In this document: positions 34,669 through 44,400 of the stretch, in pieces
How the letters are laid out: every line of letters starts with the position of its first letter
How positions within the stretch are numbered: position 1 is the first letter of the stretch
Program-made: the position numbers and the translations under genes
Notes under the pieces: model-generated
What the model was told of the DNA's origin: nothing
Database searches by the model: none
What the model saw: the letters and a program-made list of their open reading frames with translations, nothing else
From: Candidatus Uhrbacteria bacterium
Lineage (GTDB): Bacteria > Patescibacteriota > Patescibacteriia > JACRJV01
DNA length: 54,428 nt
Direction: 5' to 3'
Assembly (NCBI GenBank): GCA_016215325.1
Contig: JACRJV010000017.1
Location: 1 to 54,428, forward strand

Positions 34669-35987
34669 AGAAGAGCCCGGCCTTTGGTTATCTTCACCAG
34701 GACGCGCGATTGAACGTCGTCATTGAGGAGATGCTCGGCATTATCCTGTGCCGATTGTTGGTCACGGAAGAGGAGTCCCGCATTAAATTGATAGGTGGTT
34801 CCGCTGCGCGTCAATGATTGCATGTGGAGGATCTGTTCTGAAGATTTTTCTTTTGCGTGGATCAATACGTGGTCGATAAAATTGCGACGGGTGCCCGTGA
34901 ACGTCCCCTTGAAACCGGCTAACGGTGTTTGGACCGTGCCATTATACGCCTCCATGAGATACGCGGTGATTGCGGTCATTCGGAAGTTCGGGTCGATGCA
35001 GTACCATCGGCCATCCGGTCGTACCAGAATATCGACACCACCGACACCATACCATCCGCGTTTGCGAACATCCGGGAGAATTGTTGTGAGGAAAACTTGA
35101 GTCACTTCTTTGAGCGTCTCGGAGTAATCGTCGGGGTAGATGACGCCCCCGAGAAACTCACCTTGCTCACTGACGATCTGTTGGTTCCAACCGATGATCT
35201 CAATTGGCTTGGTATGATCATGAGGGATGGCGAATTGCAATCCGTAGTTAAATTGGGCACCAATGAATTCTTCTACGAAGATATCGCCGAGTGAATCTTT
35301 AAATTCTTCAGCTGCCTCTTTCAGTTGCTCGCGGTTAAAGCAGATGCGCACCCCGTCGCCGGCACTGGATGATGAAATCTTAATGACGCATGGCCATTGG
35401 TTAATTTGATCAGTATGTGCGAAGAATTCCGCCCCATTGGAATACGCGCGCGGGCGTTTTGGGAGGTGTTCTTCGGGGATATATTCTGGCATGTTTTTTT
35501 TATCATTGAGCCATGCCGTGATCCAAGGGTCAATTAAATAGAGGTGCCGAAGCGAAGCGTCGAGATACGGCTGGGCCATAACGAGCGTGCCCGGTGTTAC
35601 GCGGGTCCACAGCTCTTGTTTAATTCGGACGTTCCGTTCATGGCAGTTGAGAGTGGAGTTGATGTCCGGTGGAAAGGTATTGACTCGATTGCTCGGCGCG
35701 AGTTCAAGGCCACAATGGTTTTGGAGAAGATCCCGAATATCAGGGTCCCCGGACGCAGAAAATGTGAGAACGGAAACATGATCGCCTGCGCAGGTGACCG
35801 GCCTTGCAGCGACTAATTCTTCGATCCAAGAAGGGACCCTGTTGAGAAAATTTGAGTCCTCTCCGCACGGGAACCCATAGAAGTAGGTTGTTCCTGCTGG
35901 GAAATAGTCAGAGAGGGAAATAATCTTTCGATTCGGGAATGCGAAATCCAGCATCGTTAAAGTTGAGGGGGTATGTCTCATGGACAT
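34665..35987 (-). CDS. ATP-grasp amide/peptide ligase
   Basis: LNDK, VIK-SSAGDGV, VEEFI, GWYGVGGVD, IDPNFR. Confidence 0.8.
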   Translation of the reverse strand: MSMRHTPSTLTMLDFAFPNRKIISLSDYFPAGTTYFYGFPCGEDSNFLNRVPSWIEELVAARPVTCAGDHVSVLTFSASGDPDIRDLLQNHCGLELAPSNRVNTFPPDINSTLNCHERNVRIKQELWTRVTPGTLVMAQPYLDASLRHLYLIDPWITAWLNDKKNMPEYIPEEHLPKRPRAYSNGAEFFAHTDQINQWPCVIKISSSSAGDGVRICFNREQLKEAAEEFKDSLGDIFVEEFIGAQFNYGLQFAIPHDHTKPIEIIGWNQQIVSEQGEFLGGVIYPDDYSETLKEVTQVFLTTILPDVRKRGWYGVGGVDILVRPDGRWYCIDPNFRMTAITAYLMEAYNGTVQTPLAGFKGTFTGTRRNFIDHVLIHAKEKSSEQILHMQSLTRSGTTYQFNAGLLFRDQQSAQDNAEHLLNDDVQSRVLVKITKGRALL

Positions 35988-36109
35988 AGTGGATGTTTAA
36001 AGCATCGCAGCCACAACTCCGTTTTAAAATACTGTGTAGATAGTAGCGAAAGCCGACAAGGGCGTGATTTCTTCATTTCGGGCTGCTGACTCTTGATGTC
36101 TGCATTCTT

Positions 36110-36180
36110 TCGGGATGCCGGGAATCGAACCCGGTCTCCACGCACCCGAAGCGTGTGTACTACCGGTATACTACATCCCG
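36110..36180 (-). tRNA. tRNA-Pro(CGG), CCA not encoded
   Basis: Cloverleaf: CGGGATG/CATCCCG acceptor, CACGC-TTCGGGT-GCGTG anticodon arm, GGTTCGATTCC T arm. Confidence 0.95.
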
Positions 36181-36212
36181 AAAGAATGCGGACATGGCAT
36201 CATTGTAGAATT

Positions 36213-36242
36213 TCCGCCAAAGGCGGATCAGCCTCTGGCTGA
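36213..36242. repeat. 30-nt double-hairpin insert TCCGCC-AAA-GGCGGA TCAGCC-TCT-GGCTGA
   Basis: Two perfect 6-bp hairpins inserted in the T loop of the outer tRNA. Confidence 0.85.
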
Positions 36243-36284
36243 GAACCCAGCCTTCACGCACCCGAGGCGTGTGTACTACCGATA

Positions 36285-36304
36285 CCTGCCTACCGGCAGG
36301 CAGG
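36285..36304. repeat. 20-nt palindromic insert CCTGCCTACCGGCAGGCAGG
   Basis: CCTGCCT/AGGCAGG stem inserted in the D arm of the outer tRNA. Confidence 0.85.
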
Positions 36305-36410
36305 TACGACAGCCCGCTTATTTTGATTGCATTAGTATACTGCACTTTTGGCACCCCGGCAATGGCGGATTTGCTGATTCCAGGAAGAATGCCCTATAAT
36401 CAGGGAAATT

Positions 36411-37091
36411 ATGCCTCATCTCTATTTTGTTGCAACACCGATTGGTCACTTGGGGGATATTACGATACGGGCGCTGGAAACGCTTCGCTGCGTTGACGTT
36501 ATCGTCTGCGAAGATACGCGCGTGACGCGCAAGTTGCTTGAGCACTTCCAGATCAGCAAACCTCTTTTGAGCGTCCGACAGCGGGGGAGTGTTCGGGATA
36601 TTGAACGCGTTTTAGAGAGTCTTCGCAAGGGGTTGTCGGCCGCTTATGTCACTGATGCGGGTACGCCGGGACTTAGCGACCCGGGTGGGGAATTGATTGA
36701 GCGGGTGCTTGCGGGGCTGCCCGAAACCAAGATTGTACCAATCCCTGGGCCGAATGCCGCTGCTGCGCTTGGCAGCGTTGCAGGGATCCCCTTGGATCGC
36801 TATACTGTAATGGGATTCCCTCCGCATAAGAAAGGGCGCCAGGCCTATTTTAAGACGATCATCGAATCGCCATTGCCGATCTTTTTTTATGAGTCGGTCC
36901 ATCGGATCCGGCGGACGTTGCGGGAGGTAGCGGACTGCCTTCCCGAAGCCCAAGATCGCTATTGCGTTATCGGCCGCGAGCTTACAAAAATGTACGAAGA
37001 AATTTTGCGCGGGAGTTTGCGGGAGTTTGTGAATCGGCCGATCACTGAAAAAGGAGAGTTTGTGGTGCTTGTGAGCCGGTGGAAGTTATAG
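36411..37091 (+). CDS. rsmI: 16S rRNA (C1402) 2'-O-methyltransferase
   Basis: LYFVATPIGHLGDIT, CEDTR, DAGTPGLSDPG, YESVHR, RELTKMYEE, KGEFV. Confidence 0.95.
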   Translation: MPHLYFVATPIGHLGDITIRALETLRCVDVIVCEDTRVTRKLLEHFQISKPLLSVRQRGSVRDIERVLESLRKGLSAAYVTDAGTPGLSDPGGELIERVLAGLPETKIVPIPGPNAAAALGSVAGIPLDRYTVMGFPPHKKGRQAYFKTIIESPLPIFFYESVHRIRRTLREVADCLPEAQDRYCVIGRELTKMYEEILRGSLREFVNRPITEKGEFVVLVSRWKL

Positions 37092-41346: not shown

Positions 41347-41394
41347 ATCCCCGTGCTTGATCGTCAAGGGGTGAGCCGGTACAATGAGAAGACT

Positions 41395-44300
41395 ATGTCT
41401 CTCTTCTCGTCACTCAACGCTGAACAAAAGACTGCCGTCACATACGGGAAAGGCCCTCTTATGATTGTTGCTGGGGCTGGAACCGGTAAAACCACGGTCA
41501 TTACCCAGCGAATTGTTTGGCTCATGGACCCCGCCGTTGGCGGGGCAAGCTCACCCAAGGCGTTCGGTCGCGCCTTGAAGCCGGAGGAAATATTGGCATT
41601 GACCTTTACGGACAAAGCAGCAGCCGAAATGGAAGATCGCGTCGGGGCGGCGCTCCCTATTGGTTATCGCGATTTGTGGATCAGCACCTTTCATGCCCTT
41701 TGTGAACGGTTATTGCGGACGCATGCTTTAGATATTGGGCTTAATGATAATTTTCGCGTCCTTACCCCCACCGCGGTGTGGGCGCTGCTTAAGAAGCACG
41801 AAGCACGATTTGATCTCGATTACTATCGCCCCAAAGGCAACCCGACAAAATATTATCACGCTCTTATCCGCCACTTTTCTCGCGCCAAAGACGAGGCGGT
41901 CGGGGTCGAAGAATACCTCCGGTTTGTCGAAGGGAAGCACTTGGACCGTGCTGCAGCTCTCGGGGTCCCATTGGTTGGAATCGGCGGGGAAGAACTCGAT
42001 CAGAAACGCTTACATGAAATTGCCGGTGCGTATGCCACGTATGAGCAAATACTTCGGGATGAGAATACCCTGGATTTTGGCGACTTGCTCGTTTGGACCG
42101 TGAAACTCCTCCAAGAGCGTCCCAATATCCTGGAGCAGTACCGGAAACAGTTCCAATGCATTGTGGTGGATGAATTCCAAGATACCAATTGGGTGCAGTA
42201 CGAATTGGTTAAGCTCCTCGCGTCACCCGCAAACAACCTTACGGTCGTGGCGGATGATGATCAGGCGATTTACCGTTGGCGGGGCGCATCATTTAGCAAT
42301 GTTATTCAATTTAAGAAGGATTTTCCGAGCGCCTGCGAGGTTGCGTTGGTACAGAACTACCGGAGCGCACAACCCATCCTTGATCTTGCCTATCAATTTA
42401 TCCAAAAAAATAATCCCAATCGTTTGGAGGCGCGCAGTGGGATTTCGAAACATCTCCAAAGCGCTGTACCGCTTTCGGGTGCGATTGAACACCGTCCGGC
42501 AGCGACGGTGCATGAAGAAGCCCGGATGGTGGTGAAGACCATCCTTGAGCAGATGCAAGAGAGCGCTTTGAGTGGCCATCCCCTGCAGTGGAACGATGTC
42601 GCAGTGCTTGTGCGATCCAATGCCGATGCGGACCCGTTTGTGCGAGCATTTGCAGCGTCCGGTATCCCATACGATGTCGCGAGTTCGCGGGGGTTGTACC
42701 TCACGCCGATTGTGTTAGATACCCTGGCATACCTTAATTTGTTGGATAACTATCACGAATCCGCAAGTGTCTATCGAGTGTTAAAAATGAGTGTGTTTGC
42801 AGTAGCCGATGAAACGATCCACACGCTCTTACGAGAAGCGCGCAAAAAAAATCATTCGTTGTTTGAAATTCTCCGTCGTTGTGGTACGGTGGGCATCCCG
42901 ACTGCCGAACAAGAAAAGATCGCCAAGCTATTGGCAATGATCGAAACACACACTGCGCTTTCCAAGGGGTTTGGCCCTGCGAAAGTTGTGGTTGCGTTTT
43001 TTAAAGATAGCGGGCTCGTTGCCCGGTGGCGTGCCGAGGGAGCAACTCCATATGACCTCCAGGAGCTTTCTTATGCAGAACAATTTTATCGTATTGTTGA
43101 ACAATATGAGCGGGAGCAGCAGATTCCAACGATTACGGGGATCGCTGAATTGGTGAGGTTAAGTTTGGAAGCAGGGGATGAGGGGGCGCTCAAGCGCGAC
43201 GATGCAGGACCCGAGGCGGTACAGGTATTGACCATGCATGCGGCAAAGGGGCTGGAGTTCCGCGTGGTGTGTATCGTGAGTATGGTGGATCGCCGCTTCC
43301 CCACCCAATATCGCCCTGAACCATTGGAGCTGCCGATGGAGCTCATGAAAGAGATATTGCCGGAAGGGGACTGGCACTTACAAGAGGAGCGCCGGCTGAT
43401 GTACGTTGCGATTACTCGTGCCAAAGAGAAACTGTACTTTACCAGCGCCCAAGATTATGGTGGGGTTCGCAAGAAGAAACCATCGCTTTTTTTGTACGAA
43501 CTCGGACTCATTCAAAAAGAGAAGTCAGAAGTCAGAAGTCAGAAGTCAGAACAATCGACATTCACGACAGATGCAACATTACCAATTCCTAATATCCGAT
43601 ATCCAATATCCAATCTCCCGTCTTACTTTAGTTTCACCCAACTCAAAGCATTCGAGAGCTGTCCGCTCCAATATAAGTTTGCCCACATCCTCAAGATTCC
43701 GATCGAAGGTCGGTTTACGTTTAGTTTTGGTAAATCGATGCATAAAACGCTCGAAGTCTTCTTCCAGCGAATGATCCGCGGTGCTCAACAAGGACAGCTT
43801 TTTGCGCTGCAAGAAAGCGCCGCAGCCGCTGCCCCCGTCATGGAAGAATTGCTCCAACTCTATGAACAATCCTGGCTCAACGAGTGGTACGAGAGCGCTG
43901 TGCACGAACGAAAATATTATCAGGAAGGGAAGAAGATCCTCAAAGAATTCTATCAACTCCATCAAGGGCATTGGCCATCGCCTCGATACCTCGAAAAACC
44001 CTTTACGATTAAATTTGGAGAGTTTGAGCTGCGCGGCGTTATTGATCGCGTGGATACCCTCGCGGACGGAGCAAATCCAGAGGTTGAAATTATCGATTAT
44101 AAAACCGGGCGCGTGCCCGAGGGCAAGACGCTCCCGTTTGAAAAGAAACAGCAGCTGCTTATCTATCAATTGGCGGTTTTACGACTTACGGATGAGCAGC
44201 CGAAGTTGTTGAGTTATTACTATTTAGAACAGAACAAAAAAATGTCATTTTTGGGAACGCCCGAAGAGTTGGAGAAGGTTGAGCAGTTCGTTGTAGAGAC

Positions 44301-44400
44301 GATCGAAAACATCCGCACGAGTGATTTCCATCCAACGCCCGATCCCATAGTGTGTGGATTTTGCGATTTTAGGACGATTTGCGAGTTCCGGAAGATCTGA
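41395..44400 (+). CDS. UvrD/PcrA-family SF1 helicase fused to a PD-(D/E)XK nuclease (AddA/AdnB-like)
   Basis: AGAGTGKT, LTFT, VDEFQD, DQAIYRWRGA, NYRS, HAAKGLEF, YVAITRAK; C-terminal CP...GVIDRVD...IIDYKTG...CGFCDFRTIC. Confidence 0.93.
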   Translation: MSLFSSLNAEQKTAVTYGKGPLMIVAGAGTGKTTVITQRIVWLMDPAVGGASSPKAFGRALKPEEILALTFTDKAAAEMEDRVGAALPIGYRDLWISTFHALCERLLRTHALDIGLNDNFRVLTPTAVWALLKKHEARFDLDYYRPKGNPTKYYHALIRHFSRAKDEAVGVEEYLRFVEGKHLDRAAALGVPLVGIGGEELDQKRLHEIAGAYATYEQILRDENTLDFGDLLVWTVKLLQERPNILEQYRKQFQCIVVDEFQDTNWVQYELVKLLASPANNLTVVADDDQAIYRWRGASFSNVIQFKKDFPSACEVALVQNYRSAQPILDLAYQFIQKNNPNRLEARSGISKHLQSAVPLSGAIEHRPAATVHEEARMVVKTILEQMQESALSGHPLQWNDVAVLVRSNADADPFVRAFAASGIPYDVASSRGLYLTPIVLDTLAYLNLLDNYHESASVYRVLKMSVFAVADETIHTLLREARKKNHSLFEILRRCGTVGIPTAEQEKIAKLLAMIETHTALSKGFGPAKVVVAFFKDSGLVARWRAEGATPYDLQELSYAEQFYRIVEQYEREQQIPTITGIAELVRLSLEAGDEGALKRDDAGPEAVQVLTMHAAKGLEFRVVCIVSMVDRRFPTQYRPEPLELPMELMKEILPEGDWHLQEERRLMYVAITRAKEKLYFTSAQDYGGVRKKKPSLFLYELGLIQKEKSEVRSQKSEQSTFTTDATLPIPNIRYPISNLPSYFSFTQLKAFESCPLQYKFAHILKIPIEGRFTFSFGKSMHKTLEVFFQRMIRGAQQGQLFALQESAAAAAPVMEELLQLYEQSWLNEWYESAVHERKYYQEGKKILKEFYQLHQGHWPSPRYLEKPFTIKFGEFELRGVIDRVDTLADGANPEVEIIDYKTGRVPEGKTLPFEKKQQLLIYQLAVLRLTDEQPKLLSYYYLEQNKKMSFLGTPEELEKVEQFVVETIENIRTSDFHPTPDPIVCGFCDFRTICEFRKI

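Follow-up and report, generated by a model that had tools for sequence, protein, structure and literature searches.

A tRNA-Pro(CGG) gene nested inside a second, hairpin-split tRNA-Pro(CGG) in a Patescibacteria genome: a likely case of gene replacement at the DNA level

We found that a complete tRNA-Pro(CGG) gene, predicted to be functional, lies inside a second tRNA-Pro(CGG) that is split into four pieces by this gene and by two short hairpins. We consider it likely that this arrangement results from a nested gene replacement at the DNA level, in which a miniature tRNA gene landed inside the resident one and the hairpins colonised the dead copy afterwards. The window, that is the whole 54,428-nt stretch of DNA analysed here, is contig C13 of a 1.14-Mb genome (G000) assembled in 27 contigs and 92.6% complete. 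The host is an ultra-small groundwater bacterium, and the nearest relatives of its MetRS, at 50-57% identity, are encoded by MAGs labelled Patescibacteria or Candidatus Uhrbacteria. The nested locus lies on the minus strand between rsmI (36411-37091, PF00590), which is followed by metG, and an ORF of 440 aa.

Read along the minus strand, the outer tRNA begins with a 12-nt piece (36305-36316) containing the 5' strand of the acceptor stem, positions 8-9 and the first 3 nt of the D-stem. The D-stem is interrupted by insert i1 (36285-36304), a perfect 20-nt hairpin with an 8-bp stem (-11.8 kcal/mol) that belongs to a dispersed repeat family. The second piece (42 nt, 36243-36284), placed by the join and by spliced alignment, carries the rest of the D-arm, the anticodon arm (CGG), the variable region, the 5' strand of the T-stem and the first 3 nt of the T-loop. 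It is followed at 56|57 in the T-loop by insert i2 (36213-36242), a 30-nt double hairpin of a class-wide family, composed of two perfect 6-bp hairpins (-17.2 kcal/mol). The third piece is only 5 nt long (36208-36212); it consists of T-loop positions 57-60 and the first nucleotide of the T-stem 3' strand, and matches the T-loop of uninterrupted orthologues. Beyond the third insert (118 nt, 36090-36207), the last piece (12 nt, 36078-36089) provides the last 4 nt of the T-stem, the 3' strand of the acceptor stem, complementary to the first piece at 7/7 positions, and the discriminator base.

The first-pass annotation of this DNA had claimed that removal of the three inserts leaves a 71-nt tRNA-Pro without loss of any tRNA base. 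Our results confirmed both points, as the joined pieces amount to 71 nt, are called tRNA-Pro(cgg) by ARAGORN, align without gaps to the inner tRNA (36180-36110) with 60/71 identity and fold as a perfect, complete cloverleaf. Its description of the inserts as three hairpins applies to i1, which is a simple hairpin, but i2 is a double hairpin and the 118-nt insert is a tRNA carried on a 15-bp stem. Likewise, it rightly held that no stem of the outer copy is broken, but four substitutions are absent from the live copies of the same allele, and one of them changes a T-stem G-C pair to G-T. Tandem duplication was rejected as the origin of the nested pair because the flanks of the inner and outer genes are unrelated and the two alleles differ at 11/71 positions.

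The reality of the outer copy is further supported by a spliced alignment of the inner tRNA against its own masked flanks, which scored 61 compared to at most 20 in 10 shuffles. We also carried out a blind test in which simple hairpins were stripped, each tRNA was deleted together with 0-45 nt of flanking DNA, and ARAGORN was rerun on 49 tRNA sites and 49 random sites. A spanning tRNA with the same anticodon appeared at two of the 49 tRNA sites (Pro-cgg at this locus and Ala-cgc on contig C3) and at none of the 49 random sites; one further tRNA site was a neighbour artefact. The edges of i1 and i2 are set independently by their other copies, and those of the 118-nt insert are ambiguous by 1 nt, placing it at 61|62 or 62|63 in the T-stem.

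The 118-nt insert folds at -51.3 kcal/mol as a tRNA seated on a 15-bp leader/trailer helix with one mismatch. From its upstream end on the minus strand, this minigene comprises a 12-nt left flank (36196-36207) that starts with a -10-like hexamer, as judged from its letters, and shares homology with the flank that this unit has in the related contig L098 described below; a 15-nt leader arm (36181-36195) that extends the acceptor stem of the inner tRNA as an inverted repeat; the intact tRNA-Pro(CGG) itself (36110-36180), detected by ARAGORN and Rfam and hereafter referred to as allele A, with no encoded CCA; a trailer arm that includes the discriminator base and has a single C/A mismatch to the leader (36096-36110); and a 6-nt right flank (36090-36095). 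Both arms were delimited by the fold, flank comparison and homology with L098, and the right flank by the fold of the insert and the same homology. The insert thus described contains an entire tRNA but neither an ORF nor a direct repeat of outer sequence, and has no sequence in common with the i1 or i2 families.

In the uncut DNA, the inner tRNA is the only one called by ARAGORN and Rfam (56.8 bits vs a gathering score of 29). It forms a full cloverleaf above this score and the genome encodes a nucleotidyltransferase of the CCA-adding type; on these grounds it is a predicted functional gene. The outer copy, in contrast, lies in four pieces, one of them 5 nt long, and no joining enzymes were found. 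A tRNA-Pro(UGG) is also present in G000, and by wobble rules tRNA-Pro(CGG) is probably dispensable in its presence. Viral contigs contained no exact match to a 48-mer of allele A.

Independent contigs from sequencing run X1 cover 35900-36163 and 36220-36500 with 0 mismatches, at depths of 8.8 and 8.1. One of them reads from the outer 3' piece through the minigene flank into the inner tRNA, and the other from the outer 5' piece through i1 and the middle part of the outer copy to the start of i2. Reads spanning the locus had been proposed as a check, and the outcome is mixed: both sides are covered with no mismatches, but the 56 nt at 36164-36219 are not spanned by any listed piece. Other DNA runs yielded only short pieces, 90-99% like the inner tRNA or i2, that mostly continue into unrelated sequence. 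An assembler could conceivably have produced a chimeric nested contig from two strains that carry alleles A and B, respectively, at the same locus, as the alleles have a 27-nt near-identical stretch in common and the X1 contigs end inside repeats on either side of the unbridged segment. However, the unique junctions are present in independent contigs of like depth, the outer acceptor halves are located on two separate contigs and yet pair at 7/7 positions, and the same architecture occurs both in L098, which comes from a different organism and another data set, and in genome G031. We therefore give hardly any credence to an assembly artefact.

The outer allele, hereafter allele B, appears to be the ancestral gene of the rsmI-metG locus in this Uhrbacteria-like lineage of Patescibacteria. 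In G001, a genome of the same family but of another genus, an uninterrupted tRNA-Pro(CGG) lies beside rsmI-metG, in the overlap of two contigs. Furthermore, a metagenome scan with the middle part of the outer copy returned three contigs (L097, L098 and L099), two of which, L097 and L099, carry an intact allele B beside rsmI-metG. The uninterrupted B genes of G001, L097 and L099 have diagnostic D-loop and T-arm letters in common with the outer copy, which is identical to the live B of L098 at 67/71 positions and to the G001 gene at 61/71. Its substitutions relative to the live B of L098 are located at positions 9, 26, 32 and 62, at which the four live B copies agree among themselves; at positions 9 and 26 it is unlike all four. 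With four private differences from live copies that agree, the outer copy therefore descends from a real allele and has begun to drift, and it is presumably a dead pseudogene. The proposal that it represents a real and distinct allele, to be sought uninterrupted in relatives, was thereby upheld by the intact orthologues found at the locus in G001, L097 and L099 and by the live inner gene of L098. Among named genomes, MetRS-anchored synteny gave 45 loci, none with a tRNA-Pro or an i1 or i2 copy nearby.

The third metagenome contig, L098, spans 21 kb and stems from a related organism that preserves the gene order around the locus, its RsmI being 69% identical and three downstream genes 74-95%; at the same place we observed the reciprocal arrangement. 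Here allele A, with the same leader and trailer as the inner gene of the window, is the split outer gene. Four inserts interrupt it: one of 34 nt in the D-loop, a 20-mer resembling i1 in the anticodon stem, a copy of i2 at 56|57 and, at 62|63 in the T-stem, a cassette of 128 nt that holds a live allele B between 17-bp inverted repeats. Once joined, this outer copy is 71/71 identical to the inner tRNA of the window. An alignment of the 118-nt insert of the window with the A locus of L098 spans about 115 columns and contains 2 mismatches and a single 5-nt gap; the homology stops within 1-3 nt of the insert edges. Therefore, the A unit is one module found in two contexts, which agrees with the proposal of the first-pass annotation that a replacement of the same isoacceptor was delivered at the DNA level. 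In both reciprocal arrangements the cassette occupies the same T-stem site, 5-6 nt from i2, and sequence comparison indicates that two independent events put one allele into the other at that site. The reciprocity suggests that replacement was repeated, and perhaps competitive.

The two small inserts have lives of their own. In G000, i1 is present in 7 identical copies and in 12 copies when up to 3 mismatches are allowed; one copy lies in the D-loop of a dead tRNA-Phe fragment and another at the centre of a different palindrome between two tRNA-Ala genes. Its exact letters also occur in 12 stretches of viral contigs. Comparison of the i1 region with plasmids of cultured bacteria returned 82 records, mostly small Klebsiella plasmids, with E values of about 2 over 22-23 nt, a likeness that we take as chance; i2 gave a single weak match. 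The i2 family counts 7 copies with up to 4 mismatches in G000, including the one at this locus, and with up to 2 mismatches it is found in 136 of 301 genomes of the class (reversed control, 0), with compensatory variants in its stems. It also occurs in 10 stretches of viral contigs and reaches a summed contig depth of thousands in groundwater runs. Both families are mostly found outside tRNA genes, in intergenic DNA and viral contigs. No Rfam family matched i1, i2 or the flanks of the minigene, nor did any match a third element, about 100 nt long, that was observed in T-loop fragments. These sequences identify i1 and i2 as wandering hairpins of this class and its phages that insert without target duplication.

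When i2 was sought with T-loop flanks (GGTTC before, RWTYC after), 17 of the 301 genomes gave matches and the control gave 0. We fetched 17 i2 loci and read them by eye. Most consist of an intact tRNA and, 3-50 nt downstream, an i2-bearing 3' fragment of the same kind of tRNA, in some cases as tandem units; in two, i2 lies in the D-loop of a tRNA-Ser, in one in a duplicated 16S start and in one in no RNA gene. In genome G012, i2 is also found in the D-loop of a dead tRNA-Val copy adjoining a live one. No case of i2 inside a tRNA standing alone was found. Similarly, stripping 2632 simple hairpins from G000 brought out no hidden tRNA (for example the missing Gly-GCC and Thr-GGT); therefore, no hairpin-split tRNA stands alone in this genome.

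Nesting itself appears to be a general habit of these genomes; the first-pass annotation had suggested scanning CPR genomes for further nested tRNAs. In G000, six of the 49 ARAGORN tRNAs (Pro-cgg, Ala-cgc, Lys-ttt, Arg-gcg, Ser-gct and Arg-tct) are flanked by leader/trailer helices of about 11-19 bp, some with 1-3 mismatches, and none has an encoded CCA (assessed partly by eye). On contig C3, Ala-cgc is located inside a decayed outer tRNA-Ala that bears i2 in its T-loop and whose T-loop and stems are broken; in a split outer copy of L099, it is the acceptor that has decayed. On contig C8, Arg-tct was seen by eye to be bracketed by two fragments, a 5' one that bears a hairpin and a 3' one, whose acceptor strands pair at 7/7 positions, and the GGTTC/GATTCC T-loop site of this outer copy is empty of i2. 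Possible remnants of an outer copy were also seen by eye at Lys-ttt. In G031, the anticodon loop (38|39) of an outer tRNA-Ala(GGC) is followed by an intact tRNA-Ala(GGC) whose inverted repeats are imperfect; this is a single 110-nt insert free of hairpins, and the two outer pieces join to a 74-nt tRNA-Ala(ggc). Finally, the tRNA-Ser loci of G175 and G136 show by eye the same nested plan with i2 in the outer D-loop. An automated finder of such loci, applied to 106 fetched loci, was noisy, making false spanning calls from neighbouring tRNAs at 4 sites, and only L012 and L066 merited reading by eye; it missed L098 because the inserts of that locus are not simple hairpins.

The first-pass annotation had offered a second possibility, namely that the inserts are removed at the RNA level and the pieces religated, so that one transcript gives both the inner and the outer tRNA-Pro(CGG). 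A promoter-like site (36334-36362, minus strand) with 9/12 consensus matches and a 17-nt spacer ends 17 nt upstream of the outer tRNA start. It comes from a consensus scan that found 2 sites vs 0.8 expected, and would be likely to drive the whole locus. The full RNA folds with the outer acceptor stem closed (z = -5.8), and within it the 22-bp inner stem and the hairpins form separate domains. Such a fold, the perfect cloverleaf of the joined copy, the recurrence of the architecture and the identity of the outer A of L098 to its live counterpart at 71/71 positions despite four inserts are all compatible with RNA-level removal. However, no bulge-helix-bulge was found at any junction, as i1 is one perfect hairpin and i2 two, with no 3-nt bulges at their edges. 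Searches of the 92.6%-complete G000 for a tRNA splicing endonuclease (PF01974) and for RtcB (PF01139) returned 0 matches each, and the same searches gave matches in 4/14 and 10/14 control genomes, respectively. With one 'exon' of only 5 nt and decayed outer copies elsewhere (Ala(CGC) and L099), these absences make joining at the RNA level unlikely. Furthermore, the hairpins are general dispersed repeats, mostly intergenic or in viral contigs, the inserts match no Rfam family, and the outer copy of the window has its four private substitutions. The splicing alternative was accordingly abandoned as highly improbable. RNA run X16 yielded only short pieces, 90-99% like the inner tRNA or i2, which we attribute to other organisms because most of them run into unrelated sequence.

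We return to nested replacement, for which the following order of events and route of expression are what we infer. A minigene of about 115 nt, comprising a -10-like box in a short flank, a leader of 15 nt, the intact allele A tRNA-Pro(CGG), a complementary 15-nt trailer and a few bases, would have split allele B in the 3' strand of the T-stem (61|62 or 62|63). This insertion would have cost the cell nothing because the minigene supplies the same isoacceptor. Two hairpins would then have settled in the dead copy, one in the D-stem and the other in the T-loop after GGTTC and before RATTC, whereas such hits in live tRNAs would be purged. We place the minigene first and the hairpins later because hairpin-free nested arrangements exist (G031 and the empty C8 site) and i1 is identical to six other copies. 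Only the inner tRNA would be made, from the old outer promoter and/or from its own -10-like box. Its transcript would form a 22-bp stem (acceptor plus leader/trailer) and would be freed by RNase III, RNase P and 3' trimming before enzymatic addition of CCA; RNase III as well as the CCA-adding-type enzyme are encoded in G000.

Some observations sit uneasily with this order of events. The split outer A of L098 has no substitution relative to live A despite its four inserts, as expected if the events are very recent, but this would also be compatible with selection acting on the outer sequence. For three insertions to fall within 71 nt, target preference would have to be extreme, and the same cassette site 5-6 nt from i2 in both reciprocal arrangements hints at a coupling between the two that lies outside the proposed sequence of steps. 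Furthermore, cassettes found in their own isoacceptor call for either homology-guided targeting or strong selection.

A rival to a mobile minigene is passive rescue, in which a hairpin kills the resident gene and transformed foreign DNA carrying a tRNA-Pro, joined illegitimately nearby through microhomology, is then selected. The inverted repeat would simply be the donor gene's own leader and trailer, and the A unit does keep its native flanks. Passive rescue would also account for the proximity of cassette and i2, for the many loci in which a 3' fragment carrying i2 lies 3-50 nt beyond an intact tRNA, as though joints arose next to i2, and for cassette sites that vary by tRNA (38|39 in G031, T-stem in Pro). 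Against it, nested arrangements without hairpins exist (Ala(GGC) of G031 and the empty site in the outer copy around the C8 tRNA-Arg(tct)), the edges of the A unit are the same in two contexts, and two independent, reciprocal events used an identical site. Moreover, if tRNA-Pro(CGG) is dispensable alongside tRNA-Pro(UGG), as wobble rules make probable, selection for rescue would be weak. We regard passive rescue as unlikely, though deserving of attention.

A bolder extension of nested replacement, which we put forward tentatively and would not expect to hold in full, is that inverted-repeat tRNA minigenes are new selfish, self-compensating mobile elements that home into their own isoacceptor, and that the same machinery moves the small hairpins. 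If so, a tRNA of about 75 nt on a 10-17-bp stem, with no gene of its own, would kill the resident gene and take over its job and its promoter. Alleles A and B would have done so to each other in two related lineages, and, throughout a whole class of Patescibacteria and its phages, hairpins would be moved into the loops of tRNAs and rRNAs by the same structure-directed insertion machinery. Precise insertion of the hairpins at conserved tRNA and rRNA loop sequences with no target duplication points to a structure- or sequence-specific insertion mechanism.

Several known systems resemble parts of this locus. Integration of phages and islands into tRNA genes is likewise directed at the T-arm and does no harm, since the gene stays functional through tRNA sequence brought in with the incoming DNA, and tRNA 3' fragments pile up beside tRNA genes. 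In contrast, the present insert is a whole nested tRNA gene of about 115 nt without direct att repeats or an integrase; the two integrase-family genes of G000 are located on contigs other than C13. Piles of tRNA fragments in these genomes need not mark lost prophages. Archaeal multi-intron, split and permuted tRNAs are also interrupted at up to three or four non-canonical positions, with related inserts in different tRNAs, and intron transposition has been proposed for the tRNA genes of Thermoproteales. However, our case concerns a bacterium that shows none of the bulge-helix-bulge/EndA/RtcB system, its inserts also occur outside tRNA genes and, unlike in archaeal split tRNAs, an intact copy always accompanies the split one. 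Bacterial group I introns are intervening sequences in tRNA genes too, but they are 200-300-nt ribozymes in the anticodon loop, whereas the sites observed here are in the D-stem, T-loop and T-stem; a search for Rfam intron families at E values up to 10 found none in 36000-36400.

A further likeness is found in mitochondria, where the 'double-hairpin elements' of Allomyces are a familiar example. Fungal and sponge mitochondrial elements are described as two adjacent GC-rich hairpins, spread genome-wide and inserted into or beside RNA genes (PMC2800124). Like them, i2 pairs adjacent GC-rich hairpins in or near RNA genes; unlike these organellar elements, i1 and i2 populate the genomes of a bacterial class and phage contigs. 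We know of no mitochondrial case in which a replacement gene was delivered, nor of any precedent for two-way nesting of a complete miniature gene within its own target. In the openly accessible literature covered, we found neither tRNA-in-tRNA nesting nor tRNA-targeting hairpins in these bacteria. The locus illustrates a route of tRNA gene turnover in ultra-small bacteria, in which a miniature gene would land inside the old one and leave its halves as a shell, and it uncovers two families of hairpin elements common to much of a bacterial class and to viral contigs. In practical terms, such shells are missed by tRNA finders, and the hairpins break assemblies at tRNA loci.

REP/REPIN sequences and their RAYT transposases are the remaining comparison. 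Like REPs, i1 and i2 are palindromic, short and rich in GC and occur as several scattered copies without target duplication, and G000 encodes one RAYT-like protein. On the other hand, REP families are species- or genus-specific and extragenic, whereas i2 occurs across 136 of the 301 genomes and in viral contigs and targets tRNA and rRNA loop sequences, and genes for Y1 transposases do not track it. Among the five genomes richest in i2, two had Y1_Tnp, as did two of five complete genomes free of i2, and in this small sample of ten genomes no association supported a RAYT as the mobiliser of i2. The single-copy RAYT-like ORF of G000, on contig C22, encodes 224 aa and is its only Y1_Tnp match (78.7 bits). 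Its best NCBIfam match, REP-associated tyrosine transposase, scores 68.5 bits and falls short of the cut-off of 80; the gene is flanked by an 18-nt motif different from both i1 and i2.

The Uhrbacteria genome (G000) carries a second intact tRNA gene nested within an outer one, located on the minus strand of contig C3 (locus L081, 66715-66920). There, a decayed outer tRNA-Ala harboring a copy of the 30-nt double hairpin i2 in its T-loop encloses an intact tRNA-Ala(CGC) whose flanks are palindromic over 10-12 bp. On the minus strand of contig C8 (locus L101, 7700-8040), a tRNA-Arg(TCT) gene bears a leader/trailer helix of ~19 bp, an inverted repeat that prolongs the acceptor stem, and is flanked by a hairpin-containing 5' tRNA fragment and a 3' tRNA fragment. 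The acceptor strands of the two fragments are complementary at 7/7 positions, and the T-loop of the tRNA fragment lacks i2. An integrase-family gene (340 aa) lies immediately upstream of this arrangement (C8, 8105-8596).

Elsewhere on contig C3, a live tRNA-Phe is bracketed by two dead 5' fragments: one of a tRNA-Pro with a hairpin after position 25, located at the contig end (C3:1-82), and one of a tRNA-Phe with the 20-nt hairpin i1 in its D-loop (C3:403-457).

Across the whole genome, two classes of tRNA gene can be distinguished by whether CCA is encoded. Long leader/trailer helices were observed in six tRNA genes, none of which encodes CCA (0/6). The genome-wide anticodon set includes Ile-TAT and Arg-GCG; Gly-GCC and Thr-GGT were not found. 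In the window, ARAGORN called a 91-nt tRNA-Lys(ctt) on the minus strand (43758-43848), within an ORF of 1015 aa (41353-44400). This call is probably false because it received no support from Rfam.

G000 also contains a single-copy gene encoding a 224-aa HUH Y1 protein, the nearest relatives of which are REP-associated tyrosine transposases (C22:107527-108201, corresponding to L100:1028-1702, minus strand). The gene adjoins tRNA-Glu(CTC), and an 18-nt motif occurs around it in inverted copies, once on the upstream side and twice on the downstream side. Copies of a third repeat family (~100 nt), which is strongly structured and contains an inner hairpin that covaries, were found at C8:53360-53430, C22:164802-164902 and C2:256-307. 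They occupy T-loop fragments that follow tRNA-Trp and tRNA-Met, and the family has no match in Rfam.

Two further loci lie in other genomes. In locus L088 (G078:C5, ~1440-1640 of the locus), the 16S rRNA gene is preceded by a duplicate of its leader and initial 15 nt; this duplicate contains i2 and lies ~60 nt upstream of where the gene itself begins. In locus L062 (G014:C10, 1280-2180, minus strand), tandem units composed of a leader, the first 13 nt of the tRNA and a hairpin precede tRNA-Thr(GGT) and tRNA-Thr(TGT), and one hairpin loop contains an inverted piece of the D-arm.

The exact i1 20-mer was also found in GC-rich viral contigs (loci L114-L124) that do not resemble Patescibacteria phages, and the host range of i1 may be far wider than this class of Patescibacteria. 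In these viral loci, other hairpins often adjoin the 20-mer.
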